Assembly (NCBI RefSeq): GCF_025526975.1
Contig: NW_026515677.1
Coordinates: 1 to 64,000 of the forward strand
DNA length: 64,000 nt
Direction: 5' to 3'
From: Fimicolochytrium jonesii
Lineage: Eukaryota
Part shown: piece by piece, positions 13,574-57,387 of the stretch
Position numbering within the stretch: position 1 is the stretch's first letter
Layout of the letters: each line of letters opens with the position of its first letter
Notes under the pieces: generated by a model
Told to the model about the DNA's origin: nothing
What the model saw: only the letters and a program-made list of their open reading frames with translations
Database searches by the model: none
Translations under genes and position numbers: made by a program

Positions 13574-14382
13574 AGTGGTGAATTTCTGCGACGTTTTCCG
13601 GACTGGACGACGAGTACCTTATATATGCATAAACTTCTCGGCAATAAACTCTCGGTGGCGGTCGGTTTGCTTACAGGTAACAGGCTATGTTCTTGGTGAT
13701 TGCCGGTGGGCAAGCTGCTTATCCACCACTGGGATATTCGCTCTCGCAGCTTTTACCCCTGCACATCCCCCTACAGTATGCCTTACATATTTCACCTTCG
13801 TCGGCGGCGGACGAGACGTTCGTGCACCGTCGCGTGTGACCGCTTGTCCTGAACATCAATCTCCTTTAGTGGAGTACGTAGCTTCAGTTTTTCCATGATA
13901 CTGTACAGTATGTTCGCCGAAAAAAGGAGGTCCGCGTGAACCCCGATCTGCGTATGCCGACACTGGCTATATATATCTACATAGAGTGACGCTAAGCAGC
14001 GACCCTTACAAGTACTTCTCAGAAGGCCGGTACATAGACAGTTGTCACATGTCACGGTTGCCGCTTTCCCAACGCTTCTCACGATGCTCTCGGAGTTCGG
14101 GGACTGTCACGCCCAATTCTCAGACAGGACGGCTGATCGCGACCCTATCTGCGCAAATCGAGGAAGAGCGCTCGGGAAGAAACAAGACTCATGAGGAAGC
14201 ATCATCGAGGGAGCAAGAAGCGTACGTTCGCTGGGACCGACAGGCTCTGTTGCTCTAGACAACGATTGAAGTGCTATTATGTAGCTATGTACAGTACATA
14301 ATCCGGATCCACAACGTTTCCGGACGTCACCCTTCCTGATTCAATCCCCATATATAAAAGCACATGACAGGGAGTGGGGGGA

Positions 14383-14421: not shown

Positions 14422-14655
14422 AGCATTGGGACATAGGCGTGGCAGTTTCTCTGCGACATCATTGCCGCCAATGAACGTATGCCATCCCATACCCATACCC
14501 ATACCCGTACCATGCGGAAGTGCCCTCGCTCTGATCCCAAAATGTACCGACCATCATCCTGCATAAATACAAAGGGGCAAAGCGTCTGCCTCCCACCCCA
14601 TCATCACCAACACCCAAAAACAAGGAGAGCTAAACAACACTAACAATAACTCGCC

Positions 14656-16714
14656 ATGAGTCAGCGGCGCTCACTGTTTACATCTCCATTGCGTTCGGTA
14701 GCTCTACTAGCCTTCGCAGTAGCGATCACTTTCCTCCTCGCAGGGGCCAGAGCAACCAAGACAGAGAACCCGGGCAGTAACAAATTAGGGCCTATCATCG
14801 GTATTGACTTGGGGACGACATATAGGTAGGGTTCACTTTTTCTGTGTTCTATTTTGACACACAGGCTAACTGCGCTATGCCCCCAGTTGTGTCGGTGTCC
14901 ACAAAAATGGACGGGTTGAAATCATTGCCAACGAACAGGGCAATCGCATAACCCCATCCTACGTCGCATTCACCGATACTGAGCGACTCGTCGGAGATGC
15001 TGCAAAGAACCAAGCGCCAGCCAATCCTTTCAATACAATTTTCGATGCGAAGCGTCTGATCGGTCGCCACTTCAATGACAAGGAGGTCGAGGAGGATGCA
15101 AAACATTGGCCCTTCAAGCTCGTCAACAAAGACCAACGGCCCCGTGTTCAAGTCGAGGTCAAGGGCGAAAAGAAGGTCTTCAGCGCAGAGGAGGTGTCTG
15201 CCATGCTCCTGACCAAGATGAAGACCATAGCGGAAGAGTATCTCGGCCGCAACGTTACACGCGCAGTCGTCACGGTCCCTGCGTACTTCAACGATGCGCA
15301 GCGTCAAGCCACTCAAGATGCGGGTGTCATAGCTGGCCTCGACATCGTCCGGATTGTGAACGAACCGACAGCCGCCGCTCTAGCATACGGGTTGAACAGA
15401 AAGGGTGGCGAACAACATGTCTTAGTTTACGATCTGGGTGGCGGGACCTTTGATGTGTCCTTGTTGGCCATCGACGACGGGATCTTCGAAGTCTTGGCCA
15501 CCAGCGGTGACACGCACTTGGGCGGTGAAGATTTTGACAATCGCCTCATCCGCCACTTCTCGTCCTTATGGAAAGAAAAGACTGGTAAAGACTGCAACAA
15601 AGACGCGAAGGCCATGGGCAAACTGAAGCGCGAGGTGGAGAAAGCTAAGCGTACGTTGTCCACCGCAATGTCCGCCCGTGTCGAAATTGAATCGTTTCAA
15701 GACGGCCGTGACCTTTCGGAGACGCTGACCCGCGCCAAGTTCGAAGAGTTGAATCTGGATCTTTTCAAGAAGACCATGAAGCCCCTCAAGAAGGTTCTCA
15801 AAGATGCTGCGATATCGAAAGCCAAAGTGGACGAGATTGTGCTTGTCGGAGGGTCTACTCGTATCCCCAAGATTCGAGAGCTACTCGAAGATTTTTTTGG
15901 CGGAAAGAAAGCAAGCCAGGGGATCAATCCCGATGAAGCGGTCGCGTACGGAGCCGCCATCCAAGCTGCCATTCTTGATGAACGAGTCGACGATTACGAC
16001 TCGATACTTCTCGTCGATGTCGTACCTCTGAGCTTTGGTATCGAGACCTCTGGCGGAGTCATGACCAAGCTGATTCCTCGTAACACCCCGATTCCTACCA
16101 CGAGGTCTCAAACCTTTTCTACCACCGCTGACAATCAACAATCTGTTCTCATTCAAGTCTACGAGGGGGAGCGTCTGATGACGAAGGATAACAACGTTCT
16201 CGGCAAATTTGATCTTACCGGTATCCCAGGAGCCCCACGCGGTGTCCCCCAGATCGAAGTATCTTTCACAGTGGACGCCAATGGTATCTTGGAGGTCTCA
16301 GCGGTCGAAAAAGGAAGCGGAAAGATGGAGTCAATCACCATCAAGAACGAGCAAGGTCGTCTTTCCGAGGCAGACATTGAACGTATGATTCTGGACGCAG
16401 AGAGATTGGCGGAGGAAGATGCCACGCTGAAGAAACAGATTGAGGCCCGCAACAGGTTCGATTCGTACCTTTACTCAGTGAAGGACCGGGTCAACAAGGA
16501 ATCGGAACTCGACGATGTGGACAAGCAAAAAGTTGTCGTTGCGGTCAGGGAAGCACAAGACTGGTTGGAATCTGAAGGCTCAAACGCAGTCGAGGAGGAT
16601 ATACAGGAACGCGAATCAGAACTCGAAGCAGTGGTTGCCTCTATCATGGCAAGACTTAACACTAGCACCACCTCTAGCGGTCGTGAGCAGTCTTCTTATC
16701 ACGATGAGTTGTAA
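14656..16714 (+). CDS. KAR2: ER-lumenal Hsp70 (BiP/Kar2 family); 1 intron (14826-14886)
   Basis: Signal peptide, [37 protein letters not shown] and C-terminal HDEL. Confidence 0.95.
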
Positions 16715-18990: not shown

Positions 18991-21592
18991 GGTTAGCGAG
19001 AGCTCCGGCGATGAAGACGGGCGGCACCAGCAGCGAGGGCTTTCACCCGTGGACAGGGGTCTGCAGCGCCCACTGAACCTCCCCGCGCCCATCCCTTTCC
19101 GTTTTCCCAGCACACCGGGTGGATCCCTGGTGTATGAGCCCCCGCCACCACCACCAGTTCAACGACCCCGCCCGCAGACGCATGCCAGCACGAAGGTTTC
19201 CCTTCACCGAATCGATAATCACAATCAAGTTCAAAGGGAGCGCCTGACAACGTTCATCGGCAATGTTCACGTCCTTGCGCGCCACACCACCTTCTTTCTC
19301 AAGTACTACCTTGGTGAGTTTTTGAGGTACACTGTATATTTCCCATAATATTTCCCATAACAATGTCCTGACTACCACGTCTGCCCACCACAGCTGATCA
19401 TCCTCTACACGGTTTCCCGGACATCACCGACAAGCACATCAGTGTGATATTCTGCAATGTCACGGATTCGCCCCCATACGCATGCGATATTGCCAACAGA
19501 CCGCAGCGTACACAGCTCAGAGCATCTTCACCAACCTCAAAGTTAACGTACAAGAGCATTTTATGCAAATGTTTCTGGGCTACGTTAACGAAAGGATTGG
19601 TTTGAAGCGAGTCGTACTGCATCTCCATAGAGCCAGAGCCAACCGAGCGCAGCGGAGACAGTATTATCAGCGGGTCCATCAATTTACAAAATTTGCGACG
19701 TTTGAAGAGTTTCCAACCGAAGAAGAGTTTGCGCGCCTCACACGACTTGAGCGGACTGTCCTCGACGAGCTATGGGCTCTGTTTCCTCCCCAGGATGAGC
19801 CGCTTGCGTACAGCCTTGCGGTGGACGCAATGCCATATTTAGGTGAGTTAGTATATTTCCAGCAACCCCTGCTTCCTCTTTTGTCTAATCATGGTCCGCA
19901 CCTGCCTCGCTTCATCACAGGTGCCTATTGTGAGCTCTCACGCCTCTATGAGCGCCGTGGAATGTGGCTGTTTTCCGCTATCCCGCTGCGCAAATCTCGT
20001 ATCCAGTCATCTGTTCGGATCGACACGCTGATCCTAGCCATTCATATCCTGGGTTTGAGCCAACGTCGCATGGGGAAATTCACCGATGAACGCAAGCGGG
20101 AGCTGTGGGGGCAGTTTCTCAATGTGAATGTAACTTAAGTCTGTATCCTTTTGCGCCTATTTCAATCACCTCGCTGAATGACGGATTGCAGGACAAAGTC
20201 TTCAAGCATCGAAAGAAGCTTGGTCTTAAATTTAATGGATCAATCAGCACAAACGGGTATTCCGCTACCATCCACTTCAAGAAGCCAGGGCTCAAGTATA
20301 GGCATCGGGCCCGGAAGCGCAGAAAGGCCCAAATGCGGGAAGAAGTCAAGCAGCTGTATTTTGAGCATCACATCGCCGAACTACGGGAGGATCCAAACAT
20401 CGTCAGGATTGATCCGGGCAAGAGTGACCTCTTGTTCTGTCGAGACATCAAGAAGGAGCGGCCATTTCGGTACGTTTCAGTTGATTACTACTGCCCCGCT
20501 GTTGCCGCTATCCCCGCTGTCGCCGCTATCCCCGCTATCCCCGCTATCCCCGCTATCCCCGCTATCCCGGCTGTCCCCGCTGTCGCCGCTGTCCCCGCTG
20601 TCCCCGCTGTCGCCGCTGTCCCCGCCCCCGCCATCCCAATCGGCGCCCTCCTCAACCCTGTCCTTGTCCCACCATCCCCCCCCTCCCCGTCCCCACCATC
20701 TGTTGCTGCGTTCTCACAATGCACCACCCCATACCAGATACACATCCAATCAACGGGCGGTCGAGACAAAGTCTCGGTACTTTCAAAGAGACATGACAGA
20801 GCAAAAGATCAATGCCGGCATCGCTGAGATGGAATCGCGTATTCCGTCGTACAAGAGCATGAACATCGAGGAGTTCTCAGCGTTCATTGTGGATTACGAA
20901 CATGCGGGTATGATGTATCATGCATCGTCTTCAAATTTGGTAATACATGGGCTGACATCCATCCATATCCCAGATCCCGCCCTGGACGAGTTTTACCAGG
21001 ATGAGATTCACGTGGCTCGCAGATTCAAGGCGTTCTCACTGCGGCAAAAGTCTGAGAGCAAGCTCATCAAGAACATGCGACGCCTGTATGGAAAGCATTT
21101 TTCGGTCATTTTGGGTGATTGGAGCGACGCTGGAAAAACCATGCGCTTTCAGGAGTCATCAAAGACCAAAGGGTGAGTGACCATCATTGTTTTTTATGTA
21201 TTTTGATATGCTAACTCATCATCATGGAAATCAGATTCCGCACACTCTTTGCAAGAAACAGCATTCCATGCTACTTGCTAGATGAGTATCGAACGTCTTC
21301 CGTGTGCCCAGACTGCCACGGGCGTGTGAAGAAAAACATCCGACGCCGGCTGTCGTCTCGGCTGTGGCAAGCTAGAAAGGGAAGAATGGAATTCGTCCAT
21401 GGATTGGTGGGTTGCCCCAACCCCGAATGTATCAACCAAGACTGGACGCCATTTGAGATTCCTGGGAGACAACCACTACGGATGAAAGTGCACAATCGGG
21501 ACGTCCTAAGCACCAAGACTTTCCTCTCGATTGTGCGCTCGGTGGTGTTTGGCAATGGCCGCCGACCAGACGCATTCTCCCGTAACCGGTAG
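18989..21592 (+). mobile_element. Fanzor1 (eukaryotic TnpB-derived RNA-guided RuvC nuclease) gene with 6 introns; probable frameshift near 19450
   Basis: RuvC-I RIDPG (D at 20411), RYTSNQR, ILGDWS, RuvC-II LLDEYRTSSVCPDC (E at 21284), VHGLVGCPNPEC and RuvC-III NRD (D at 21500). Introns 19314-19393, 19843-19920, 20130-20191, 20470-20737, 20908-20973 and 21173-21234; the last five splice in frame. Confidence 0.88.
20494..20625. repeat. 9-bp minisatellite (CCCGCTATC/CCCGCTGTC) inside Fanzor intron 4
   Basis: About 14 tandem units read directly. Confidence 0.9.
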
Positions 21593-24659: not shown

Positions 24660-25199
24660 GCTGTGTTCGTCCCTTTCTGGCAGCGTTCGCTCCAACGTTG
24701 ACTGCCAAAGGATATTGGTGGACATCCAGCCGAAATACGAGCAAAACTAGATTCGTGAATGGTCGTGACAGGATTGACATCAGGATCTTCTGTTCGCAGG
24801 GTGTCCAGTGCGTTGGTCTTCGGAGCTGCTTCAAGTTGGGCGGTGGGAAAGTGATGCCGATTTCTGGGGAGAATTGCAAGTCAGTGCCCTGTGGTGACAG
24901 TGAAGCTCAAGCTCATCTTCAGCGTCAGTGCCTTGCTCGTCAGCACCCTCAATGTGCTCATCCGAGCCATACAAGGGGCGCTTGCCCGTTTCCTTGCTCT
25001 CCGCGCAAAAGCGGTGTCAAGTCGGACGGCGATTAGGAGTACAAGACAATATCCGAACGCTTGCGGGGACCGTGGGTATTGGCGAACCCGTCGTATCTAC
25101 CCGGACTTTTGGCCACCTACTGTCGACACCATGGGCGCCGCCGAGGCTCTGCACGCGGGCCCTCCGGCTTTCCGAAGTCCTCTGGGCGCCCAGCAACTG

Positions 25200-27050
25200 C
25201 ACATTCGCGACCTGTCGAGAGTCAAGAAGATATCCAGGGAGGCGGTCCACCCCGTTTACGGTCAAGTTGAGCGGACCATCTTGGCTCTCTATGGCATCAT
25301 ACGCAACAAGTCAGCTGGCATAAGAAGGTCACCGACCCGGCCATTGTTGCGAGGTGGAAGGCCGAGCTACGTACGAGCTGCTCTCGGCCCTCGCCAGAAC
25401 ACGGAGGAAGAGGACGCACCGCTTGATGTAACGCTGTGGGAAGGCCGCTTGGCGGAACTTGCCGCAACCGTTAAGGACGAACCCTCTGTCCGCGATGACA
25501 GTCCGACTTCTACCGTTCAAGAGCTTCGAAGATATTTCATCAAGGCCACGCTACGCGAGCAGAGATGAGGGAGCAGGAGCGGAAAGCAGGGCGGAAATTG
25601 ATCTTACTCACATGTTCCTCCTCTGGCTTCTCCAACAGACATTTGGAGGAACAGTACGCCATCAGGCTCTCTCCCGCGGCACGAACCCGGTTGGAAAGGC
25701 TGCTTATCGCCTTTCGCCGTTAGAAGTCCCGAACCCCGGGCAACCGAGAACACACTTACGCGCTACCCGCCTGCGTTTGGCAGCGACCGACAACGACTTG
25801 TTTCCTGTTCACTCCTGCAACTGCTGAAAAAAATTTCTCTGAAAGGCTTTTCAATTACGTTGTCGAAGAATCTAAAGCTGTGGCGGAATACTTCGGACTG
25901 GGGGACATCGTCCCCGCGGCAGTGCAAGGCGTCTACTAAGCCGACAAATGCGGTCATGACGAGTACATGCATCATCAAAAACAGGCGCTGGAATTTGCGG
26001 CCGATTTCGAGAACGTTGGCGACGCGGACAAGGATTGGCATCCCGAAACGAACGAACAAGTTTTGGATCTCGTTCATCCGTCCCTCTACTGCTTGGAAGA
26101 TGGGAAAAGCAAAGCCTTGCGCGCCGAGACGATTCAATCTTTTGCCGATTCTCTACGTTTCATCAATACAGGAGACGTGCTGCCAGTAAAACTTTCGACA
26201 ATCGAGGCCTGTCCGCTGGATGCGAAAATTGGAAGATGATTTTCAATGGCTGCCGACCGATGTCAACATCACCTACAATGCCGACGCCGCAGGTAACCGC
26301 GTGCAGTGCAAGTTCCAATCCTACATCAACAACATCCACCCGGCTCGAACAGCCGCGTACGATGCTCCACATGTTATTTACCTTGGCACCAAGTGGCAAG
26401 TCATCGTCAAAATGGCTAACATCGAGCTCACGCCCGAGAAACCGGGCTATCCCGGGGGATCATTGCATCTCGAAGGCACGGCACGCGAAGACATCGTTGC
26501 AACCGGGATCTACTACTACTCCATCGACAACATCACCACCTCGCGCCTGTCCTTCCAATCTGCATTTGACTCCGAAGAGGGGGTCAATTGGGACTATGAA
26601 CAAGACGACCACGTGGAGATCAACGAGATCCTTGGAGTCCTCAACCACTAACCAGCGGTGCAATTGATGGGCTCCGTTGAAGCCATCGAAGGCCGCTGTA
26701 TTGTGTTTCCGAACACCTACCAGCACAAGGTGGAGTCTTTCTCCCTTGCTGATCCTACTAAACCGGGGCACCGCAAGATCGTGTGCTTTTTCCTGGTCAA
26801 TCCACAAAACCCCGACGTCCTGTCCACCTCAACGGTACCTCCGTAACAGAGCAGCTGGTTTTGGGAGGAGGTATGCGCAATCGTTCCCGCGTTGCGAACC
26901 CTTCCTCCGGAGATCCTGGCAAGTATCGCCAAGTACGTCGATTCGCCACTCAGACTAGACCAGGCGGCTGCGATTCATGCAGGCGCGGAAGGCGAAGGAA
27001 GGGGTCGTGGATGCACACTTCTATGAAGAGGTTCGCTGTATGGGCATTAG
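25200..27050 (+). pseudogene. DUF4246-family pseudogene
   Basis: DWHP..QVLDLVHPSLY, FQWLPTDV, SYINNIHP, QVIVKMANIELTPEKP.YPGG..H.EG, FPNTYQHKVESFSLADPTKPGHRKI; frameshifts and stops at ~26189, 26651 and 26846. Confidence 0.85.
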
Positions 27051-27801: not shown

Positions 27802-29377
27802 TATGTCGACTAGTACTGTTCCTCAGGCCATCGAAGGCGACAAGCATCAGCCAAAATGTCTACCCCGAACCCACCCCCCCCCTACTCGCCCCGCCACATG
27901 CCCTCCACCCACTCCAAGCGGCAAAGGTTTCCGCCTGCTATGGAACTACGACTTGCCAGTCAACCCGACGGATACTTCACGGCCGGTGCTCGTTGGTACC
28001 GAAGTGACCGTTGCAAGTCCTTGTGCTTGGTAAATTCAGCTTGTGCTGGTTGTAAGTCTCTATGTGTCTCACACTTACAATGACTCTTCCCCTGAACAGC
28101 GCTAACTCATGTTCGAGTAAACCACGTTGTGATTATTGGAGCTGGGATGGGCCCACGCAGACTTGCCAGTTGCGCGGGTTAGCTAATGCGGTATGTTTGG
28201 ACACGAGGATATTGACGGAATTGGACCATAGCATCTTAGGAAACGTGCTTATACATCAGGCTCTTATCATTCTGTTTTTTTTTTCTCGCAGATGCCAGAG
28301 AAACAGTACCATACTATCTTCAAAATGGTGCCCAGCAATATTCTCGCCGGCGGTCTTCCGCCATTGCACGCAGACCAAGACATTTGGCATCAGTTCGGCA
28401 CACCCTGGACATCCGACGCATGCATCTCCCTCTGCATGGGCAACTCTACATGCCAGTACGTCGCATGGGCTCCGACAGAGTGCTGGCTGAAGTCGGGCGT
28501 CTATGTTGCGACGGATTTTGCTGTGGGATTGCCCGACCCTGCTGTTGCTTATTCATCGATTGATCCGCCGGTACAGTCCTCATCCGCGCCAACTTCGGGT
28601 CCGACTAATGCTCCTAGCGCCGGAGCGAGCGCTGGAGACAGTAAAAGCAATGTATTGCCTGCGGCCGTAGGTGGTGCGGCAGGAGCAGCCGTCATCGCGA
28701 TTATAGGCGCGTTGTTACTTCTGCATCGGCATCGGAAACGAAACGCCATGCGAACTGCTGATAAGACGACCGGGTATCTACCGGCTTCCGCCCATCCGCC
28801 AGCGGCCGCGACGGCTGATGCATTTGTCCCGCTTGCGTCAGGAGGGACGCCGGCGCGGACGGAAACTATGGCATCCGGCCCCATTCCTAGTATAGTCAAT
28901 CCTCCTTTCCAATCCGCACCACAAGGTTCCCACCATATCGTGAACATGGCCGATACTCAAGCATCGGCGTCCCTTCCACTGAGCAGCGATATGGCGGCTG
29001 CAACGGCAACGGCAACCCCGCCATCCTACGCAGAATCTGAACGCCAAATTTTCGGCCCGAACATTCCCGTCGCGGGCACTGCCACCGGCAAAAACAGATT
29101 CATCCATCCCTACGTACCCCACCACACTGCCGATCACGCCTCCCCAAGCGCCGGGACGCCATCCTCCTCGCCTGGCGAATACCTAGCAATCCAAGGCCAC
29201 ACCCCGGCAAACCCAGAGGAGATGTTGGTGCACAAAGGCGATTGTGTGTTGGTGCAGAGTATCAGGACGGCTCGCGAGGGTGAAGATGCGGGATCTGAGT
29301 GGGCGGTTGATGCGGTGAATATTACGAGGGGCGGGAAAGGGGATGTGCCGATGGGGTGTTTGAGGAAGGAGGGGTGA
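27802..29377 (+). CDS. Single-pass membrane protein: PAN/apple-like Cys domains, TM helix and C-terminal SH3-like domain; 2 introns
   Basis: C..SCSSKPRCDYWSW...C and CISLCMGNSTCQY..W...CWLK; TM segment AAVGGAAGAAVIAIIGALLLLHRHRKR; YLAIQGHTPANPEEMLVHKGD...W...G.VP..CL. Start uncertain. Confidence 0.7.
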
Positions 29378-29842: not shown

Positions 29843-30508
29843 TCAGTGGGACTTGGGCGCCGCCTGCACCCACTCCATAACCGCCTTCCAGGTGTCCATC
29901 TCCGTGGACCTCTTGAACCAAGCGGCGACATTTGGCCTGGTCTTGATCAAATCCGGCTGCGTGCGATTGATCACATTGAAGTAGGGCAGATGCGCGACAT
30001 CCGCCAACGAAAACTCGTCATTCGCAAAAAAGGTGCGGGTCGCAAAATGGCGCTCGTAGATGTCCAGCGTGGGTTCGAGCAGTGCGCGCGACGCCGCGAG
30101 TTTGGCCTCGTCGGTGGGCAGCTTTGCGACGGGTTTGATGGCCGTTTCGACGATCACGCCTTGGATGTGCGGGTAGAAGTTGAACGAGGATTGGTACGTC
30201 CATTGGTCCACCACCGCGGCTTTCTTGGGGTCGGTGGGCACGAGCTTGGTCCCGATGGTGGGGTACTCCGCATCGAGGTATCGGACGATCGCAAGGGATT
30301 CAAAGATCATGAACCCAGTCTCGTCTTCGAGGACAGGGATCTTGCCGAAAGGGTGGCGGGCGATATGTTCGGGGAGTTTTTGCTCCCGCTTCAGGACGTT
30401 GATGTTGATGAACTCAAAGTTGAGGTTCTTTGCTTTGAGCGCAAAGACGACTTTTTGGGTGCAGGTTGAGACGGACATGCCGTAGAGCTTGTATTGGTGG
30501 GCGACCAT
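29843..30508 (-). CDS. Glutathione S-transferase (Phi-like)
   Basis: HPFGKIPVLED, FESLAIVRYL and FSLADVAHLP; TATAAAG upstream at ~30627 on the minus strand. Confidence 0.93.
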   Translation of the reverse strand: MVAHQYKLYGMSVSTCTQKVVFALKAKNLNFEFININVLKREQKLPEHIARHPFGKIPVLEDETGFMIFESLAIVRYLDAEYPTIGTKLVPTDPKKAAVVDQWTYQSSFNFYPHIQGVIVETAIKPVAKLPTDEAKLAASRALLEPTLDIYERHFATRTFFANDEFSLADVAHLPYFNVINRTQPDLIKTRPNVAAWFKRSTEMDTWKAVMEWVQAAPKSH

Positions 30509-32803
30509 GATTGCGAAGCGAGGTGGTGGGCTGAAGGTTGGATGTGGGGTTGCGAGGACGCGTTGTGGGGTAGGCGATGTGAGTGGGGTAGATTCACCGG
30601 AGTCGGAGGAAGGCCTCCCACTTTATAGAATCTCAACGGTGAGAACGACGCATACTGTACTGCGACAAAGCCCTTCTGGCAAGGGTCGGTATACAAAGAA
30701 AGAAAGGAAATCGTGGACAAGCCTCCGAAAGCATTTGAAATACTGTCGGGGAAAGGAAATGAATAGTACCCGTCGGCGGTCGTGGAACAAAGATCTGGGG
30801 TTCGGAGGAAGCGGAAGCGGTGAGTGATTCGGAATCTCAGCCAGCTTCGCTGCTCACGGTTACGAAACACGGTTGTGTGAACTGCTGACGAACGGCGAGT
30901 GTGGACGGTGGACGTCGATGAACTGTCATTGCTTTGTGGCCATGAAACTGCAAAGTACTGTATGCGGCGTTCGCTCCAACCGTTATTCCTTTCCAGCCTC
31001 AGATCCCGATTCCCGCTGCACACATGCAGTCCTATAATAATATCCCACCTCTTCTTTTCTCACCTCCAAGCGCCACCTCGGGGTGTTCTGTCTGTTGGTG
31101 GACAAGCATCTCAGCCCAGCCGGCGCAAAGTGCAATGGGCGCGACGCGTCTCCGATGGCAACAGTTCCCCTTCCCTTTTTCCTTGGCTTTTTCCTTGCGC
31201 CCCGTCTGCCGTTCAAGTACAATACTGGGATATGGAGGTGGGACCAGTAATGGATCGGGTGCAATGCTGTCTCGCAAACAACTATCGCAACACCGTCGAG
31301 ATCTCTCTGTTTTGACGGTCGCGTACAGTATGTCGCTCACACTGCATTCGCTCGAACGATCCCAGTATTGTACAGCGCTTCTGTATCTTCCGGCACTTTC
31401 ACATGAAACGCTTGATATCGCATCTGTGTACAGTAGATTTCGAAGCTGCTATCACTGATCCCAGGGACTCCAAAACGAATGAACCTGCACTGCCAGTGTG
31501 CCGGAAGGGATCGAAAGCATACTATCTATGTACATATGTACATATGTATGCAGGAAAGCAAAGGCCGAAACGTGGTCCAGGTCTGATGCACATTGCACGC
31601 TGCATTCCATTCCCGCCCCCAGCACATAGCCCACTCTGTCAATTCTCAGGTCACTTACAGCACATCTTAGTCCCGAGTCCGACTTCCACGGGTCACCAGG
31701 CTTACCTCCTTCCCGCCAAAAGCGCCACGTTGTGTTCACTTGCCATGTGCAGTGACCCCCACAAGGAACCGTCACGATGATGTCGGGATGAGACAAGGCT
31801 GGCTTGATGGCTGCCTGTCTGTCCGGAGGCTTCATCTATACTATTACTGTACCAAGCAGTAGAGAGCACCCACGATCGTATGCGATCGTATGATATCCGC
31901 GAGCCGTAAGCCAGAACGACTGCTATGCTTTCGCGGCGGGAAGAGACTGATCCATCCCAAGCTCAGGGCCCGACTTGAGCGGGAAGCCGATTGTTGGCAG
32001 GTCGTCAGGGTCGTCGTTTCGGAAAGTGGCTTTCCACGACACAACGACGTTGTACGGCGACAGCATGCAGGCATCGAGTTGTGAACCATTGGATGCATCA
32101 GTGTGATGAGCCGCCACGCCACGTCTCTGAAAGCCCAACTGCAGGATGGCTTGGGGTCCTGGAGTTTTCGGGCATTAGGGAGGGAAAACCGAAAACATAG
32201 GCTGCGTTCCGTGACTCCCTATCTGGCGGGACGACAGACAACCCGAAGGCGGGCCTTTCCGATGTCCTGCATGCGATGTGCTCGCCCAAGATGCAGCTGG
32301 CCCGCTCAAAACGTCAACATCCATACACACATTCAACACACTCCCGTACGCTTGCTCGGGTCTCCACGCCTCTTGTCCGTTGCCGCCCTTTTCCAAAACG
32401 CACCCGCCCTCTGTTTTGTGCTCGTGCCAGCCCATCCCGATGCAAACGTGCATGCTGAAGGGCACCCTGCTGCCGGGGATGATTAGATGAGATCGGGTGA
32501 GCACCACCGAGCCTGCCGCCTCGCATCGCCCTGGTCCGTTTTCCGTCCGAGGTCAGGGATGGGTATAAAAAGGCAGGGGGGCTGCCTCGAGCCCCTCGGC
32601 TCCCGTATAAGCAGGACGTTTGGTCGTCATCAAGAATCTTTTTCAAACGCTCGTCGTTGATACCCGACCTTGACACCAAAGCAAGACGTTCATCCATTCT
32701 CACATTCCGTTCGCACTACAAACATATCAAGAAATCTGGCATCACATCGCATACTGAGAACAAACATTACAAGAAATCCATTACACATAACCAAGCATCA
32801 AAC

Positions 32804-35800
32804 ATGGACAACAGTAAGAAGATCGCCGTTGTAGGCATGAGTTGGTTAGTACATGAATGTGTCAGATGTCTAAGCGTTGGCCAACTGATCTCTCGCTCTC
32901 GGCTTTCTGCGCTTCTTCCCTTCATAGCCGCTTCGCAGGAGTTGAAGGCGTCGATGAGTTCTGGGAGGCTATCTCCCAAGGCATGGATATGATCACCGAG
33001 GTGAGCTCATCGTGCCAACCTCGATCCGCCACGCCATCGTCGCTTGTTGACCATTTGCCTAACCATCCCACATCCCCAGATTCCTGCCTCCCGCTTCGAC
33101 TACACCCACCACTTCTCCGCCACCCGCACCGACCCCAACACCTTGAGTACTTCCGTTGGCGGTTTCCTCAAGCATGGCGAAGATTTCGACCCCCGTTTCT
33201 TCAAAATGAGCCCTCGCGAGGCCGCCGAGACCGACCCGCAGCAGCGCGTCGTGCTCGAGGTTGCGTATGAGGCTTTGGACAGTGCGGGATATGTGGCGGA
33301 CAAGACGCCGGCGATGATGAGGAAGAGTTTTGGGGCTTATGTTGGTGTTACCAATTGTGATTATGCGGCGGTGAGTTCGGTTTCGTCCTCGGATGTGCAG
33401 GTCGTTGCAAGGCAACGATAATCCAAGTCGTCGCTAATACTTCTTCCACCGCAGAACTCCCACAGCGGCATCGGCCCTTACTACACGACGGGAACCGGCA
33501 AATCCTTCGTGAGCACCCGCATCAGCCACGCATTCGGTTGGTCCGGTCCGAGCATCACTGTTGACACCGCAGGCTCGTCGGGCCTCGTCGCCATCCATCA
33601 AGCTTGTCAAGCCATCATTCATGGGGATTGCAAGGCCGCTGTTGCGGGAGGGGTGAACATGATCACGAGCCCGCACATGTACGTGGGTCTTTCCCGCGCC
33701 TCGATGCTCTCCGCGACTGGAGGGTCCAAGCCGTTTGATGCAGCTGCCGACGGGTACTGTCGCGGCGAGGGATGTGGGATTGTTGTACTTAAACGATTGA
33801 GTGATGCCATCGCCGACCGTGACAATGTAAGTTTCGATGATAGTATGCACCACGAGTGCAACCAACATCACTATTGTGGACCTGCTTACTCATACATCAT
33901 CGCTCCATACCCGACAGATCATCGGCGTCCTCACCGGTAGCGCCGTCAATCAAAGCGGTCCGGCGAGCTCGATCACGTCCCCGCACGCCGAGACGCAAAA
34001 AGATCTTCTCGACACCGTGATGGCCAAAGCGGGCGTGCGCACACAACACGTTACGTACGTTGAGGCTCATGGTGGCGCAACCCAAACCGGCGATGCAGCC
34101 GAGATGGCTGCGCTCCAGCAGGTGTTCGGTGTGAACCGAATGCATGACAATCCGCTCTATGTGGCGTCGGTTAAGCCGAACGTTGGACATGCGGAGTCGG
34201 TAAGTGGATTCCTTTACGCCAAGTGCGTAAGCGCCGGGTTCATGGTTTCTGATATCTCTCATCCGCACATTAGGCCTCGGGACCCGCCTCCTTCATCAAA
34301 GTACTGCTCATGATGCAGCACCGTGCCATTCCTCCGCATATCCATCTACACAACTTGAATCCCGAGATCGACCACTTGAAGACATTCAACATGGTTATCC
34401 CGAAAAAGCTGACTCCGTGGGTTTCTTCCACATCCCGAACTGCCGTCGTCAACAACTACGGTGTTGGCGGATCGAACTGCAGCGTGGTTATCGAGTCTTT
34501 CGACAACACGCAGCAGCGTCAGCAGGACTCTTGTGGGCCGGCCGTCCACGTCCTCACGTTGTCTGCAAAGAGTACAACGTCGCTGCAGAACCTGCGCAGC
34601 CGATACTGCAAGTTCCTGAAGAGCGCTAGGCAGGACATCAGCGATATTGCATACACGGCCTCAGCGAGGAGGAACCACTACGGATATCGCCTGGCGGTGA
34701 CGGGCTCGAGCCCTGATGCGCTTCTGGCGGCGTTGGAAGCTCCTAATTGTGACACTGCGGCCTTTAGGAACCAGGTTCGTGCTTCACGTTTTGTTTGCAT
34801 CGCTCTGTTCTCGAAACTGATCCTTAGTGCCCCAACCCTCTCATATTCAGCCGCGTAAGATCGTATTCGTCTTCCCTGACCAGGAATGCTTCTATCTCAA
34901 CATGTGCAAGGAGCTGTACACAACTTTTTCGACGTTTCGCAACGCGTTCAATGAATGTGACGCCTTGATTCAAAAGGAACAGGGATGCTCGATCCACGAT
35001 GTTGTCTTTGCATGCCACTCTCCGTCGCTTAGCCTGCAGGACACCCAGCTGGCTGTCTTCGCGGTGCAGTATGGTCTCGCTAAGATGTGGTCGAGCATGG
35101 GCGTCCGTCCTGAGGTAAGTTGGAGTGCTGGTATCTGTAATTGGAAAGCGCCGCACCTCCTAAAACTTGGATTCTAGTTTGTACTCGGGCACGGCCTCGG
35201 TGAATATGTCGCAGCTGTCGTAGCGGGCTGTATCACCGTCAAGAGTGCCGTCCATCTTATTATCGCTCGCTGTAGCCTTTTGGAGCGGATGCACTACCAC
35301 AAGCACATGTTGACCATCAGTGATTCAGCTTCGCACGTCAAGACGCTGATCCACTCGGCGTTTCCAAACATCTGTTCCTCCACTGTTCCTGAGATCGCAT
35401 GCCAAAACTCGCCCGAAGATGTCGTCGTCGCGGGCGAAACGGCCCATCTCCGCGTGCTGGAAGAGAAGTGCAAGACAAGGGGCATTGCCACCAAATGGTC
35501 AGATGTCGCCTTTCCGTTCAACTCGCGCTTCGTTGAGCCTATGCTGGATGAGTTCCGATGTGTAGCGGCAAAGATCGAATATCGCGCGCCTACCATTGCA
35601 TTCATGTCGAACGTGACCGGCGGAAGAGTGGCAACCTTGGACGCCGACTACTTCTGCGACCAGATGCGCAAGGTCGTTCGTTTTGAGCAAGCTGTGGATT
35701 CCATCCTGGATGCTAATGCCGAGCAACCCCCTGTCTTTATTGAGATGGGTCCGTCTGGTTTCCTTCCAATGATCAAGAAGATTGCCGCGGCTCGCGGTTC

Positions 35801-38800
35801 GCCCTTCACCGAGCAGCAGGCTCTTGCCACCGTACGCCGCCAAGGTAGCGATTGGGCCCACTTCACTGGCGCCCTCAAGCATTTATACCTGCAGGGCGTC
35901 GACCTCGACTGGGACGCGCTGTACGTCGACCGAGTCCAGCGGAAGGTCGTGAACCTGCCCTCCTATGCGTTCGACCGTGTGAGGTGCTGGATCGATTTCA
36001 AGGACGTGCCGTTCCAGCATTCGGCGTGCCTGCTTTTCGAAAAGGCACAAGCCGGGAAGTTGGCTGCCGAACACGCAAGCATCCAGCTTACAAGAACCAC
36101 TATCCAGCATTTGCCCGATTTATTTGATCTGCTTCATCGTGTGGTCCAAATGCCCGCCCATGCCAATGGTCATGTAGCGATCTTTGACCTCCCGACACTC
36201 GCCATTGCCAAGTACATCGATGGACACCGACTCGAAGATTTCGCAGTGTGCCCGGCCTCAGTGTACTGCGAGCTTGCCATGGCGAGCGCTTGTGCTATCG
36301 ACAAAGCAAACTTCGATACCGCGTTTGCCGTCCGAGACCTGGAGCTGATTCATCCCCTCGTCCGACACAAATACAGTGCGATCACCATTAGGATCGAAAT
36401 GGAGCAAAGAAATGCGGCGTACGCTTTCTGCGTCACATCCTATTCGGATGCCAACCCTTCAGTGTTCGTCAAGCATGCGGAAGGCGTAGTTGAGCTCCAA
36501 GCCGTGGGCATTGTGCGGAAGCAAATCGAGCGAGACGTCAAGGAAAATGATATCCGCGGCCAACTCAATCGCATGCAGATATCGGCGGATGCGGACATCA
36601 TACGCCGCTCGGAGATCTATCGCGTGTTCGATCGCGTTCTCGCCTATACCCCGATGTATCAAGGACTGAAGCGCGTCGAATTGTCCGCGAGCGGGCAGAA
36701 AGGTTCTGCGCGCATTTCGGTGGATTTGCCGCTCTCGGCTGGCAGCGAAAAGTACGTCGTGCACCCGGTTTTGCAGGACACCTTCCTGCAGGGTGCGATC
36801 TTCCTCGCCAATGGACATTCCTCGTGCCCCAAAACCGAGGTGCGCTTCCTGAATGGGATCAAGGAAGTCATGTTCCTGCAAGGCGGCATGGACCCGACCG
36901 CGGAGTACTACGCCTTCTTCATGCTCGAGGATAAATCAGCAAGAGAGAAGGTAGCCAAGATTTACATCTTCGACTTGAACGAAAATCTCGTCGCGGTCAT
37001 GTCTGGCATCTCGTTCAGGTGCTTGCAACGGAGTGTCCTTACAACACTCCTGAGCTCATCCCTCGCAATGCACACGTCAGCAGTGAAGGAGATGCCCAAA
37101 GAAATTCCGAGATCCGTCATGGACAGTCTCCGTTTTCCGTCCCCGCCCGCGACGCCTCAGCTCTCGCCTTCTCCCCTACGCAGCCGCACGGTCTCGATCG
37201 CGAATGACTCCCGGTCTTGGTCGGCTACACAGTCTGCTATGGCTTCTGTTAGTGTAACACCAACTAAAGGACAGTCTCCTGTCAGTAGCCGTCAGAGCGT
37301 TAGTTCGTCGGGCATCAGTCAGCGCTCGACCGTCACCATCTCTCTTCTCAAGACGATTATCGCCGAATCACTTGGAGTTGATTCGACGGAGTTGAAAGAC
37401 GACGATAACCTGGTAGACTGGGGACTGGATCCGTTGATGACAATCGAAATTCAGAGTAAGCTGCGGAAATTGGTCTCCTGCGAACTCGGCACCTCCGCCT
37501 TCACCGACTATCCCACCATCAGCGGCCTCTTGGCACATCTGAATGGTCATGCGAAGACCACCGTGTCGTCTGCGACGGCAAGCACCAGAAGCGTCAAAAC
37601 CGCCGCCCCTATGGCATGTCGGACTTCTTATAGCTCCACCGCGCCCACAGTCAAAAGCATCGTGGCCGACGCGTTGGGAATGAGCGTAGCCCACCTTCTC
37701 CAGCAAGACTGCGCCCTAGCCGAACTCGGCATGGACGCCGTCATGCTGATCGAGATCCGCGAAGCCATCTTGAAACGCTTACATGTAGATATCGGCCTCT
37801 CATTCTTCGTCGACAATCCTACCCTGCACGCGCTTTGCAGACACGTAGACGAGCGCCTGGGCTTTTGCGAGGTGGCAGTCGAAGCCACGCGGAACGTTTT
37901 TCAGACGCATGACCGAAACCACGTCCATCGTATTCCGGCCGCGCGCAAACCAAGGATCAATGCGGCCCCGCACCACCACATCACATCGACCATGGTGTCT
38001 CGCTACATCCCCGACATTCACCACGCGATGGACAAAGTCTCGGCCAAGTTCTCGAAGTTCGCTGAAGAGACTGGATTTGCCGGGTACTGTGACACTGTCG
38101 AAGTCCTGCAGGACCAGCTCTTCATCCGCTACGTTACGGACGCGTTCGCCAAGCTCGGGTGCGACCTCCCGCACATGCGACATGGAGCAAGCGTGGGCCA
38201 CCTGCACAATGTCCTTCCGGAGCATTCGCGTTTGATGGGTCGGCTTTGGTGGGCTCTTGCGGAGGTTGGTGTTGTCAAGTTCGATGAGGATCGCAACGAG
38301 TACGTTCGCAGTCATTTGGACTTGTCCGGCATCCCGCAATCGGACGAGCTGCTTGACACATTGTTGGACCGCTATCCGGAGTATTCGCAAGACACGAGAT
38401 TGATGGCCAAGACCGGCAGCGTTTTTGCAGACTGTCTGACGGGCAAGGTCAACTCACGCGAGATTTTCTTCGATGACTTCGAGACATCGCACCTGATGCA
38501 CTCGCTTTACACCGGGTCTCCGATGTTTGCTACCACCATGAAGCAGCTCAACGACCTGCTGCCGGCGCTATTCCGTGTGTTTGACACGGAAGCGGCGCGT
38601 CGACCGGTGCGTATCCTGGAAGTCGGCGGCGGAGTTGGCGGAGCTGCTCAAATGATGATTCCCACTCTGGCGAAACTTGGACGAAAGGTCGAGTATACGT
38701 TCACCGACGTTTCGCGGTCGTGGTTTGCGAAGGCGCAGAAGACGTTGGACATGTATGATTTCGTTGATTGCAAGGTGTTTGACTGTGATCAAGATCCAGA

Positions 38801-41097
38801 GGAACAGGGCATTGCGATCGAAAGCTTCGACATCGTCATCGCGGTGAACGGCGTCCACGCCGCTCAAAACCTCAACAGAGCAGTAGGGAACATCTCCAAA
38901 CTCCTCACCTGCAACGGGGTTCTCATCCTCTCGGAACTCATCCAAGCGCCGTTCTGGCTGGACCTCGTGTTCGGTTTACAGCGAAAGTGGTGGAACTTTG
39001 ACACCGATGAGCGCAACTACCCCCTGATCTCGACAGACGCATGGCGCGGCGTTTTTGCTTCGTCTGGATTGACCCAGTTTGCGTACACCCGTGGCGTTTC
39101 GGCGGAAAGCAATATTCAGAAATTGCTCTGCGGTCGCAAGACTGCTATTCCTGGGAAAGTGCACACCATCATACACTCCATTGACCCGACCATCAAGGAC
39201 GTGATTGACACCTCCGACGAAGAACTGATGCACGTTCTGCGCCGCGAGATCTCCCTCGTCTTTGGTAGCCTGAGCCTACCGCTCAGTGGTAAACACACGA
39301 TCGCGGAGTTTAGCAGTATCATCGAACAGCACCTTCTCGACGAGGCCGCTCTGGTCCGAAGCGACCATTTCATCACCACCCATCACTGGCATCCCGCAAC
39401 TGACCGCTCTCACGACGTTCCCGCCCGCACCGCTCGCTTTCCACTCCTCAACCTCTGCCAGACATATCTTGACGGCATCCACCTCCCCAAAGGGGCGATT
39501 CGATCCCACACGTACCACGAGAAAATGATCCCGCACCACATCGACGTTTCCAAACTAGAGGACGCCATGAACGCACTGATCGAGCGACACCCGATGCTCA
39601 AGGCCAAGATTTCCGCGGACGGGCAGTACTTTGTTGACCAGTCTGCCGGACCGTATCGCATTCGGAAGCAACATATGCATGGGAAATCGGAATTTGAGGT
39701 TAAGAGGGTGTTGGAGGAGATCCGGGAGGACCGGAAGAGTGCTGGGGGTGGAGAGGATGGGTGGTTGTTCTTCTTGGCTGTGGTTGAGGTGGCGCATAAC
39801 GAGACTATTCTGGTCTTTGATGCTGGTAAATGAGATTTCCAGCACATTGTCATGCTTCGAAAGGACGCTGACAGCTAATATCGTCGCCCATTTTCCTTGT
39901 AGACTCACTATTGATGGATTCACAATCCATGCTCCTACTCTCGCGTCAGCTCGCCATCGGCTACTACGAAGGCCCGTACGCCATCCCTAGCGGACCAGAC
40001 TTCTCCTACGCCGAGTACACCCGCATCATCGCAGCCCGACAGGCAGACTCGGACATCGCCCGAAAGGAAAGAGCATACTGGTTCTCGCGACTCGACACGC
40101 TTCCCGGCCCCTTGAGACTTCCTCACAAGAACGGTGCGACCATGACTGTCCAACATCCCGGATTCCGCAACCAACTCCACCGGATCGACAGCGCTCGATG
40201 GGCAGCAGTTCGCCACCAGATCACCTCACGGGGTCTAGAGCCGTCAACCGTGCTCATGGTGGTATTCGCCGAGATGTTGAGCATGCAGTCCGGCCAAAAC
40301 CATTTCTGCTTCAATGTGAAATTTCAGGACCGCGTTCGTGGCATTCACGATGAGGTTGATGATATCGTTGGCAATTTCGACGCTGCGATGCTTGCGGAGA
40401 TGGACTTTAGGGATGGTGGGGAGATGTTGGTGCAGAGGGCTAGGAGGGTTCAGAAGATGGTGTTGGAGGATCTTGCGCATTCGAGCCTCGTCACTGCGAC
40501 ACAGGGTAGGTGGATGATTCTCGACCGTCGCTGCTGCAAAACTCTAGCTGATCTCAATCGACTTTCCAACACTTCAGTTACGGCCGAACTGAACAAACGA
40601 CGTGATACCCCCCACAAGACTTACTCTCCCGTGACATTCGAGAGCAAGTTCCCCTTGGTGCGCAAGCTGAAGAAAATGGACTCTCAAGACCGCATGTTCC
40701 TGTTTGAGCCTCTCGTCGAGGAGAACGTTACATACCACAATCACGCTACCGCCGGCATGGAGCTGGACCATCAGGTAAGGACGCCCGTCATAATACCAGG
40801 CATATGCCGCGATTGTCACTGACTCGTAGTCTACTTTTACGCCACCAGGTTGCAGAAGACGACGCCGGCAGGCTCGTAATGAACTTTGACTTCATCCGGA
40901 ACGTCTTCCCGCAGGATTCCATCACGGACATGACGGCTTGGTACATCGAAACGATTCGCAGTCTCGGCGACAGCGAGGCCTGGAGCAAGCCTTCGATGGC
41001 GCGGATGAAGTCTAACGTGCCAGCATCGATGTCATGCGAGACGCAAGGGAGAACGACATGCTCGACACGGGCTGGATGCTGGTGCCAAAAGCAATGA
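32804..41097 (+). CDS. PKS-like megasynthase KS-AT-DH/PT-ACP-ACP-cMT-(ACP relic)-heterocyclization (Cy) domain with catalytic residues substituted; 10 introns
   Basis: [65 protein letters not shown] and [32 protein letters not shown] and DHQVAE. The predicted GT-AG introns splice into one open frame. Confidence 0.9.
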
Positions 41098-43649: not shown

Positions 43650-44419
43650 TTCTTCGCTGCGCGTGAAGGCTTGGTCAGTCGCTTATTCAGTCAAATACAA
43701 GGAAGCCCGCAGGTTGCCTGAAAATTCCAACATCGATCTTGCCTGCCCATTTTCGCCAAAACGACTACACCACGCTTCAGAAAGAGTTCACCAACATCGC
43801 AGGGGCAGTGGCCTATATGTTCAGAGTTCGCGGGCACCATTGGTTGGAGGATATGCAGGCTCGGTATGAGAATGTCTGGAAGAAATGTTTGAAAGATACT
43901 GTCGACCCCGGCATCCCTCGGAGATACGTTGCTCATGAAGCCTTGCATGCCATTTACCCAATGGTTCTTGATGACTTTTGGAAGCAAGCTTGCGAGAATG
44001 GGAATATTGCCGGAGCCTTGTCCAAGCGTTGGAATAGTGCCCCTGCCGGAGTCGCGGCGTTCAAGGCAGTCTACCAGGGGGCAACAGACCTCGCAATGGC
44101 TATTCCCAACATCAAGATTCCCTTCAATGGCCATTACGAAGAGCTTGAGAAGATCATCACTCATCTCCGGGACAATCGTTGGGATGGTTCCATTAACGCC
44201 CGATACTACAAGGCCGGGAAAATTCCCTATGACGAGGGCAAGTTTGGGGTTCTTGCAGCTGCTACACTCGCTGCTCTTCAAGCATTCGCTCCTGCTAGCC
44301 CTTTGGCTCAAAGCCCCGCTTTAAAGCGTGTTGCTGATAATGCGCCCATCGCCGGTGGTGTTCTTGCTCGTGCGATCTCGACTGTAGCTACTTCTGAGGC
44401 TTGGAGAAGAAGGGTATGA
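43650..44419 (+). other. Probable endogenous viral element: nucleocapsid-like protein of a Qinviridae-like negative-strand RNA virus; 5'-truncated and frameshifted
   Basis: Intronless. VAYMFRVRGHHW...LHAIYP..LDDFW...KRWNSAPAG...SPALKRVADNAPIAG was recognised from memory only. The upstream frame (LRVKAWSVAY..) joins through a 1-nt shift near 43740. Confidence 0.5.
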
Positions 44420-55581: not shown

Positions 55582-57387
55582 TTAGATCAACGCCGCGATG
55601 GCAGCAAGCAGACCCGCGAAGGGGAGGGCGCGGAGGGTGGATGCGCTGCTGTCGATCGGGCCGTCGGTGGGGACCGGCGGGGGGACGGGGACGTCGGTGG
55701 GGTCCGAGGTCGGGACGGGGACGTCGGTGGGGTCCGCGGTGGGTTCCGCGGTGGGGACGTCGGTGGGTTCGGCGGTGGGCTCGACGGTGGGCTCGACGGT
55801 GGGCTCGACGGTGGGCTCGACGGTGGGCTCGACGGTGGGCTCGACAGTAGGCTCGGAGGTGGGCTCCTCGGTGCAGTCCTCGTCGGTGGTGGTGTTTGTG
55901 GGCTCCGCGGTAGGCTCGACGGTAGGCTCGACAGTGGGCTCGGAGGTGGGCTCCTCGGTGCAGTCGTCATCGTCGTCGGTAGTGGTGGGCTCAGCGGTAG
56001 AGGTAGTGACATCAGCGGCGGAGGTGGAGGTGGAGATGTCGATGGAAGTGGAGGTCTCGACAGCGGACGTAGTCGCCGTGGTGGTGCCGTTGCTGGCCGG
56101 CTGTCCCGCAAGGATGGTGTCCAGGTACTTTGCCAAACGGTATCCACCCTTCGCGATCTGCTTCCTGACAATCATGTACGTCTTCTGGTAGTACTCGCCA
56201 GAGAGGTCGTTGGCGGTCCTGGTGCCGGTGCCGGCAAGGAGGTCCTTGTCCCAGACAATGCCGCAGTTGGCGTCGTTGCCGTCGTTGGCCCACTTGAGGG
56301 GGCAGGCGTCGGGGCGGCCGTCGTTGTTGGAGTCACCGGCGACGTCGCAGGTTGCCCATGAGGGGGCTTCGGCGGCCCAGGAGCCGTTTTGGATCTCGTT
56401 GATGATCCAGCCGCGGTAAGCGTCGATGTCGCCTCCGAAGTTGTCTGTTTTGCAGTAAAGAGGAGGAAAAAACTGATCAGCCAAAATCTTCCCGGTCGTT
56501 TGTGATGTGGTATGATTCTTTACTCACCGGTGATGTCCTTGACGGGGATGAAGCTGTCCCAGATAATGTGCAGCTGGACGGGACGGGAGGTACCCATGTA
56601 GACATACGTTGTGGAGTTGGCCCAGGTGGCGAAGAACCCGTTTCCACCAGCGAGCTTTCCGCAGTTGTGGAGGGGCTGGGTGATATCACCCAAAAAGTGG
56701 GACAGGAACTTCAACGCCTCGGACCGGGCATCCCAGCTGTACTTAGTGGCGTCCTTGACCTGCAAGGTGTAGTTTCCGATCGCATCGACGATGTTGATGC
56801 CGCCGGCGCCGTCACGGGCCAGGTCGACCTCGCAGTGCACCTTCTCGGGGGAGTCGACGTCCAGAGGGGTCTCGTCCTCGGCGTCGATGAAGTGGAGGTT
56901 GCCGGCCCAGGCGTAGGGGCGGCCGGGGAGGGACTTGATGTCGTCGGCCCAGGTGGAAGAGAGGGTGAAGTTCCAGCCGGTGGGGAGGAGGTAATCACGC
57001 ACGGCAGCTGTCTCGGGCTTCAGGAGCTTGTCGGCGATGTATCCGATAGAGGAGTGACCTATAAGAGAAGGAAAAATACGGTCAGCTTAAGGAAAGAAAA
57101 AAGGGGAACACTGGGGCAAGCACACCCCCTCAGTCATCGCAAATAGCCATTCCGCCGCAATCACGATTCCGACAACCAGTCCAGCACCACCATGTCCGTC
57201 CAAGCGACCAAGCCTTCCTCCCTGTCCTTTCCACTAGCCAATGTCCATCCACGACCAGTGCGTCGTCCCCACCCCCCTGAAGTGAGAAATCGCGTTCCAT
57301 CCCCATTGCCAACCTACCTTCATTGGTCCAAGCATGCGCGGAACCCGCCAACGCAAGCAGCGCAACAGTAGACACAACAGCGTACAT
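55582..57387 (-). CDS. Secreted S1/P1 nuclease with a Thr/Pro/Glu-rich stalk and GPI-anchor-like C-terminus; 2 introns
   Basis: Signal peptide then W..EGH, TWADDIK, LHFID, LKFLSHFLGDITQPLH and LHIIWDS; EPTV repeats; hydrophobic tail LPFAGLLAAIAALI. Confidence 0.9.
55665..55960. repeat. 12-bp coding tandem repeat (EPTV)n in the nuclease stalk
   Basis: GGTGGGCTCGAC units. Confidence 0.9.

Follow-up and report, generated by a model that had tools for sequence, protein, structure and literature searches.

The question raised by this locus is what a full-length polyketide synthase (PKS) is for once the residues that would hold its growing chain have been replaced. The gene concerned, referred to here as pseudo-PKS, lies at 32804..41097 on the forward strand of a 64-kb stretch of Fimicolochytrium jonesii DNA (positions 1 to 64,000 of contig NW_026515677.1, assembly GCF_025526975.1), the whole of which is called the window. 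As judged from its residues, domain order and relatives, pseudo-PKS descends from a fungal hybrid of a PKS and a non-ribosomal peptide synthetase (NRPS) of the type found in Umbelopsis, and it continued to be selected as a protein once its chain-holding sites were gone. Its role is less certain; the leading but tentative possibility is that it slows a separate active PKS and tailors the product of that enzyme.

Gene structure and domain order

The gene comprises 11 exons and 10 introns, with 7521 nt of coding sequence that specify 2506 amino acids and a single terminal TGA. A first-pass annotation of the same DNA had read one uninterrupted frame across 10 canonical introns, and this holds: all ten introns are GT-AG and 63-91 nt long, and seven of them are not a multiple of three, though the splicing is a model built on sequence and homology. 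Searches of Pfam, NCBIfam and PDB place the domains in the order ketosynthase (KS), acyltransferase (AT), product template (PT), two acyl carrier proteins (ACP), C-methyltransferase (cMT, here MT) and heterocyclization domain (Cy). The N-terminus begins directly at the KS, without the starter-unit acyltransferase (SAT), and the C-terminus stops after the Cy, without a module of adenylation (A), thiolation (T) and thioesterase (TE) domains. The features, all on the forward strand, are as follows.

32564..32571 (+): putative TATA-like box seen in the sequence, about 240 nt 5' of the ATG and followed by an A/C-rich leader
32804-32844, 32928-33000, 33080-33370, 33455-33826, 33918-34199, 34274-34774 (+): exons 1-6
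34851-35114, 35178-39825, 39903-40505, 40578-40774, 40849-41097 (+): exons 7-11
32813..34498 (+): KS, disarmed
34851..35903 (+): AT, disarmed
36129..37058 (+): PT-type double-hotdog domain (TIGR04532, 149.8 bits, below the cut-off of 168)
37335..37553 (+): pseudo-ACP1 (PF00550), with an otherwise typical helix II
37641..37859 (+): pseudo-ACP2
37986..39143 (+): C-methyltransferase of the PksCT type (PDB 5mpt_A, E=1e-52)
39426..40986 (+): Cy, a heterocyclization-type condensation domain (best PDB matches the Cy domains of EpoB, BmdB and HMWP2)
39826..39902 (+): intron 8, with position and phase as in an Umbelopsis-type locus (L001)
40987..41097 (+): 36-residue tail in place of the A-T-TE module, with four Cys and a C-terminal CQKQ

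The CQKQ end presumably resembles non-canonical prenylation signals, and the Cys-rich tail that carries it may be incidental read-through. A remnant of a third ACP was suspected at residues 1945-2000 and rejected, as two ACP profiles detect none there. An AlphaFold model of the Cy part encoded by exon 9, built from a three-row alignment, reached a pLDDT of 40.

Loss of the chain-holding residues

Condensation, acyl transfer and phosphopantetheinylation depend on Cys and Ser residues of the KS, AT and ACP domains. In pseudo-PKS these are replaced, together with the AT His, at exactly the codons to which the first-pass annotation had drawn attention. The KS nucleophile motif TACSS reads TAGSS (C175G; codon GGC, 33572-74). 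In the AT, GHSxG reads GHGLG (S614G; GGC, 35193-95) and HAFHS reads FPFNS (H723N; AAC, 35520-22), and the DSL motif of the carrier proteins has become DPL in ACP1 (S1360P; CCG, 37431-33) and DAV in ACP2 (S1462A; GCC, 37737-39). Two changes had escaped that annotation, HGTGT to HGGAT in the KS (34074-79) and GQG to DQE in the AT (34878-86). Both KS histidines, His310 and His350, and AT Arg639 are retained, and the AT is eroded more than the KS.

An active non-reducing PKS (NR-PKS) has a KS Cys-His-His triad, an AT Ser-His dyad, at least one ACP with a phosphopantetheine Ser and an N-terminal SAT. The corresponding positions of pseudo-PKS hold Gly175, His310 and His350 in the KS, Gly614 and Asn723 in the AT, and Pro1360 and Ala1462 in the ACPs, and the protein opens at the KS. 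No SAT, A, T or TE remnants, and no split SAT or A-T-TE gene, were found across the 64-kb window. By established chemistry, a protein without these Cys and Ser residues would perform no condensation, acyl transfer or phosphopantetheinylation, and pseudo-PKS does not qualify as an active NR-PKS.

Selection after disarming

The losses are concentrated on catalysis. Near-invariant columns, defined against retrieved protein homologues, are retained at 56/60 in the KS, 16/20 in the AT, 2/3 and 8/10 in the two ACPs, 11/12 in the PT and 18/22 in the MT. The KS fold is the best-kept part of the protein (81/89 conserved columns, almost no indels), and three of the four near-invariant columns lost from it are active-site residues. 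Five of the seven catalytic residues of the acyl relay are lost, as against 6 of 86 other near-invariant KS, AT and ACP columns (Fisher p=1.7e-4). The same five of seven compare with none of nine catalytic residues in the PT, MT and Cy (p=0.005), a list compiled post hoc that omits the Thr of the Cy motif PVVFTS and with it would stand at 1/10.

A simple neutral-decay model that allows point mutations but no indels was run at 11 divergences; in none of them does the joint probability of losing five or more of the seven catalytic residues while acquiring no stop exceed 7e-8. About two stops would be expected over 7521 nt at 1% neutral divergence; none is observed, nor is any frameshift, and the C-to-T-type stops of neighbouring pseudogenes are absent from all 2506 codons. 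The earlier suggestion that loss of every nucleophile is unlikely under neutral decay thus gains a figure, and is strengthened by the selective retention of fold-defining residues.

Among retrieved proteins used as a control (with cluster duplicates removed, and neither window proteins nor fragments from Umbelopsis counted), the Cys is absent from 4 of 501 KS domains, and the Ser from 2 of 263 AT domains and 13 of 744 ACP-like matches. All three nucleophile types are present in 197 of the 199 retrieved proteins with KS, AT and ACP; the other two lack one type, and none lacks two or more. Three KSQ domains occur among the control KS domains. An NR-PKS of Mycena kentingensis (P0036) likewise has Gly for the AT Ser, with KS and ACPs intact.

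Selective catalytic loss combined with an open frame indicates that pseudo-PKS was selected as a protein after disarming rather than left to neutral decay, a conclusion that concerns past selection and not present function.

Descent from an Umbelopsis-type hybrid

The nearest relative is a hybrid from Umbelopsis with the order SAT-KS-AT-PT-ACP-ACP-ACP-MT-Cy-A-T-TE and all nucleophiles intact, represented by proteins of U. vinacea (CAO3665375.1; P0274) and U. nana (GAB5591667.1; P0279) that are 3698-3700 residues long and annotated as unnamed or hypothetical. In a HMMER search with the PT end, ACPs, MT and Cy start of pseudo-PKS as query, P0117, whose cluster includes both full-length proteins, was the one match to stand out from the best 150 of 10574, with 469 bits where the runner-up scored 340. 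Umbelopsis also provides the best match for the KS (55% identity), PT (30%), MT (41-43%) and Cy (37%), though not for the AT.

FastTree trees place the window protein as sister to Umbelopsis for the PT (support 0.75), MT (0.998) and Cy (0.993). In a KS tree of 21 rows (IQ-TREE; the label 'bacterial' was given by architecture for four of its five rows), both lie outside the basidiomycete and mostly ascomycete-type NR-PKS groups. There they are adjacent without forming a joint clade, which is not rejected either (AU p=0.27), and the branch of the window protein measures 0.68 against 0.36 for Umbelopsis. At the DNA level, the position and phase of intron 8 are common to pseudo-PKS and the Umbelopsis-type locus L001, which came from a metagenome scan as at least one among the 598 pattern matches listed. 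The ends of predicted fragments coincide with introns 3 and 5, which are probably shared as well; introns 6, 7 and 9 are apparently unshared. The 25 Cy loci returned by a GTDB scan are generic bacterial ones, with 25-33% identity. Taken together, the trees and shared introns point to an old fungal homologue rather than a fresh bacterial import. Judged by its introns and gene content, the window comes from a fungus or a fungus-like host, perhaps of chytrid type.

Pseudo-PKS and the Umbelopsis hybrid are colinear over KS-AT-PT-ACPn-MT-Cy and have the same unusual Cy subtype, whereas the hybrid also has the SAT, a third ACP, the A-T-TE module and intact nucleophiles. Through domain losses and point substitutions, every activating, covalently binding, carrying and releasing element has gone from pseudo-PKS, which is best read as a disarmed descendant of such a hybrid and not as an intact hybrid itself. 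Counts of lineage-derived sites run 43:18 (window to Umbelopsis) for the KS and 36:22 for the AT; the Cy alone is not accelerated (21 against 35). The A-domain motifs of the Umbelopsis hybrid seem to resemble those of Cy-linked, Cys-activating bacterial A domains, which would suggest a product of the methylated aryl-thiazoline type.

A protein of 4494 residues (P0227; A-T-KS-AT-DH-MT-KR-ACP-ACP-Cy-A-T-TE) has the Cy nearest to the window and Umbelopsis subtype (33%), and may be a lead to the origin of the Cy-A-T-TE module. Three word-indexed protein searches returned no orthologue of pseudo-PKS, one of them also missing P0117, so their sensitivity is low, and the protein has no identical match in protein collections that hold two of five tested window neighbours.

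Retained PT, MT and Cy sites

The PT His and Asp, the MT glycine loop and the Cy DxxxxDxxS motif, noted as retained at first pass, are all in place. The PT has His958 (36225) and Asp1142 (36777), the His/Asp pair of NR-PKS PT domains. The MT has the His/Glu dyad and S-adenosylmethionine-binding loop of its type, with Tyr1719, His1835, Glu1861 and the glycine loop EVGGGVGG. The counterparts of these three residues in PksCT are Tyr1955, His2067 and Glu2093, according to the accessible part of PMC11579551, whose residue list was combined with the 5mpt_A alignment to map the positions by hand. Seven of the eight MT pocket positions that are invariant among 29 homologues are retained. The motif GLLEGWW has become GLQRKWW. 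With the pocket changes described below, the MT may have acquired another substrate or be dead.

In the Cy, the DxxxxDxxS core survives as DSLLMDSQS, along with Asn2295, Thr2416, Asp2422 and Gln2424, the Thr and Gln being equivalent to PchE T474 and Q482. The Thr of PVVFTS (BmdB T1196) corresponds to Glu2380 in pseudo-PKS and to Val in Umbelopsis; these assignments rest on alignment and spacing to the BmdB and PchE numbering in the portion of PMC8807600 that was available. The change at this Thr was considered as part of the disarming, a reading that was rejected: Umbelopsis, whose protein is intact, has no Thr there either. The domains left looking catalytic are thus predicted to be the PT, MT and Cy, all of which act non-covalently on carrier-bound chains.

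Possible roles of the disarmed protein

The closest functional precedents are two fungal proteins, TlnC (tricholignan) and UsgM (ustilaginoidin), in which an ACP without Ser directly precedes a PksCT-type C-MT. In the accessible parts of the papers describing them, TlnC methylates a chain attached to the NR-PKS TlnB; efficient methylation requires the ACP of TlnC, which cannot be modified and also inhibits elongation by the KS, while UsgM is a trans-acting pseudo-ACP-MT whose ACP motif, DPL, is that of ACP1 here (PMC8694227, PMC8597850). As described there, TlnC and UsgM have two domains, whereas pseudo-PKS has seven in 2506 residues, with two pseudo-ACPs and a dead KS and AT. Pseudo-PKS is not a member of the TlnC/UsgM group, from which it differs in architecture and clustering, though by analogy it likely works in a similar way.

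We therefore favour, at a probability of roughly 0.45, a whole-chassis, TlnC-like tailoring partner and brake for a separate active PKS encoded elsewhere. On this reading an active NR-PKS would be bound by the dead but conserved KS, through pairing or docking. Elongation would slow, in the manner reported for TlnC, with the pseudo-ACPs occupying the partner's KS. A chain carried by the partner's ACP could then be acted on by the MT (the likeliest), PT or Cy. The first-pass annotation had proposed a repurposed protein, naming a scaffold, a trans-acting partner and a sensor or regulator. The trans-acting MT/PT/Cy partner has since gained a precedent in TlnC and UsgM and an intact ancestral type in Umbelopsis.

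Several observations weigh against a TlnC-like partner. TlnC and UsgM are encoded, as far as the accessible text describes them, within the cluster of their partner PKS, but the window contains no second PKS and the neighbours of pseudo-PKS form no biosynthetic cluster. TlnC works with two domains, so that retention of 1300 residues of dead KS-AT-PT needs an extra role. Two of the 17 MT pocket positions known from PksCT are changed non-conservatively (Leu to Arg1702 and Leu to Gln1876), the latter being Leu in 29/29 MT homologues, and the MT has not been spared acceleration (lineage-derived sites 37:16, window to Umbelopsis), nor has the PT (20:4). No orthologue sharing the nucleophile losses appeared in the protein searches and metagenome scan. 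In the HMMER search (best 150 of 10574), the Umbelopsis cluster was the sole clear family member and no paralogue from the same genome was seen, a weak negative, since pseudo-PKS itself had no 100% match there either.

Some of these observations fit better with a wholly non-catalytic pseudoenzyme, acting as a scaffold, dominant-negative decoy or ligand sensor whose MT, PT and Cy are dead or only bind, which we consider rather unlikely. Faster change than in Umbelopsis across the KS, AT, PT and MT, polar changes in the MT pocket, an altered GLLEGWW motif, the lack of a carrier downstream of the Cy to take its product, and a KS fold that is the best-kept part (81/89 columns) would all be expected of such a protein. 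However, the catalytic residues of the PT, MT and Cy are retained while those of the KS, AT and ACPs are lost, and a role in binding alone would not require both catalytic dyads.

A once-selected pseudoenzyme that is now silent or in early decay, its open frame recording past selection only, is less probable again. True pseudogenes and mobile-element remnants lie nearby, no orthologue was found in the searches made, and the collections holding two of the five tested neighbours contain no identical protein. Yet 7521 nt without a stop or frameshift, where 1% neutral divergence would bring about two stops, together with 20/20 canonical splice sites and a promoter-like upstream region, speak against this.

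Slightly less probable still is a single working C-terminal domain, the MT or the Cy, that acts by itself on a small molecule, free or CoA-bound, with the upstream chassis kept only as a folded, in-frame passenger. The need for MT or Cy would purge upstream stops while missense changes build up, the Cy is unaccelerated, and the changes in the MT pocket could reflect a switch of substrate. A passenger KS, however, should erode broadly or vanish as the SAT and A-T-TE did, and 93% of its near-invariant columns are kept. UsgM, moreover, failed to methylate the released product, in the available parts of its description (PMC8694227, PMC8597850).

That an active PKS has been misread, whether through faulty assembly, RNA editing or a non-standard genetic code, is very improbable, although all five codons differ from a canonical one by a single base. 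The substitutions fall into several classes (T>G, A>G, C>A, T>C, T>G), so that no one editing chemistry would restore all five, and random errors would not strike five catalytic codons. Ser and Cys are encoded in the usual way (207 and 48 codons), and neighbouring genes end in TAA, TAG and TGA. Correcting the five codons would still leave the altered HGTGT and GQG motifs and the absence of the SAT and A-T-TE.

Neighbouring genes

The window had been described at first pass as full of stop-riddled pseudogenes, which overstates the case, since it also has apparently intact Hsp70, RtcB, GST, S1/P1 nuclease, PAN-TM-SH3 and tRNA-Glu genes. The Hsp70 is of the BiP type (14655-16714, +), nearly intron-free, with a signal-peptide-like exon and a C-terminal HDEL. 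The RtcB RNA ligase (12011-13618, -) has an extra N-terminal region without a Pfam match, and the S1/P1 nuclease (55582-57086, -) combines a long stalk of PT repeats with a C-terminus that is hydrophobic and GPI-like. A receptor-type protein (28056-29377, +) combines PAN/apple-like, transmembrane and SH3-like parts (Pfam SH3_2 below cut-off; ESM Atlas leads of at most 0.81). ESM Atlas look-ups for two window neighbours gave only matches below 0.9. An intronless glutathione S-transferase (GST) gene (29843-30508, -) stands head-to-head with pseudo-PKS at a distance of 2.3 kb, and the two might be co-regulated. The tRNA-Glu gene lies downstream of pseudo-PKS.

Among the disrupted genes, a NACHT (NLR-like) frame of about 1900 codons (5783-11539, +) is interrupted by just two in-frame stops (TAG, 7019; TAA, 9200). 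A DUF4246 pseudogene (24855-27050, +) has stops and frameshifts, and its stops look like Gln codons changed from C to T. A code in which TAA and TAG specify Gln, prompted by such nearby stops, was rejected: the intact neighbours use all three stops, and pseudo-PKS has 96 Gln codons and no TAR. A transposase/TnpB-like element (19398-21592, +) is fragmented, with a weak Cas12f1-like TNB match (E=0.049) and an internal low-complexity repeat.

Three frames resist assignment. An intronless one of 250 codons (43667-44419, +), with a broken coding-like stretch upstream, has neither a Pfam nor an ESM Atlas match and is possibly the remnant of a mobile or viral element. Two others, likewise intronless (83-1780, + and 2754-3683, +), lie in a block of lower GC and have no Pfam matches; the second gives the impression of a capsid or fibre-type beta protein.

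Related systems and significance

Pseudo-PKS resembles several known systems in part. Fungal C-MT NR-PKSs of the PksCT type and basidiomycete SAT-KS-AT-PT-ACP-ACP-TE synthases share its PT-type hotdog, tandem ACPs and PksCT-like MT, but they are active, have a SAT, end in TE, reductase (R) or hydrolase domains and, among the retrieved matches, include no Cy. The bacterial NRPS Cy domains of EpoB, BmdB, HMWP2 and PchE likewise have DxxxxDxxS and equivalents of the Asn, Asp, Thr and Gln; the Cy of pseudo-PKS differs from them in its replaced PVVFTS Thr and in having no adenylation domain or acceptor carrier. Non-elongating KS0/KSQ domains and pseudo-domains occur singly inside active megasynthases. 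Like the KS of pseudo-PKS, a KS0/KSQ is a folded domain with a replaced catalytic residue, but it is a single domain in a working line, whereas here all acyl-bearing domains are disarmed and the KS has Gly rather than Gln. To our knowledge, fungal trans-acting pseudo-ACP-methyltransferases are two-domain proteins, and dead domains normally lie inside working enzymes. No full-length disarmed fungal PKS is described in the open-access literature consulted, including the accessible part of PMC8070225 (most subscription journals and supplements fall outside it), and nor is the Umbelopsis hybrid.

The finding is real, statistically strong and testable, and concerns a single copy. The fullest version of the partner reading, which we regard as doubtful, is an entire megasynthase turned pseudoenzyme subunit, with a place among PKSs like that of a pseudokinase among kinases: its dead KS would pair with an active NR-PKS-NRPS, its decoy ACPs would pace elongation, and methylation or cyclization in trans would reprogramme the product of an undescribed aryl-heterocycle pathway in non-Dikarya fungi. 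The search has also brought to light the intact Umbelopsis hybrid, which is directly testable by expression. Genome-mining tools would score pseudo-PKS as an ordinary PKS, and partners of this kind may have been overlooked. If the reading is true, a dead full chassis under selection would mean that a partner without catalytic activity can determine how a PKS is programmed, and would offer a natural tool with which to probe KS pairing and ACP competition.

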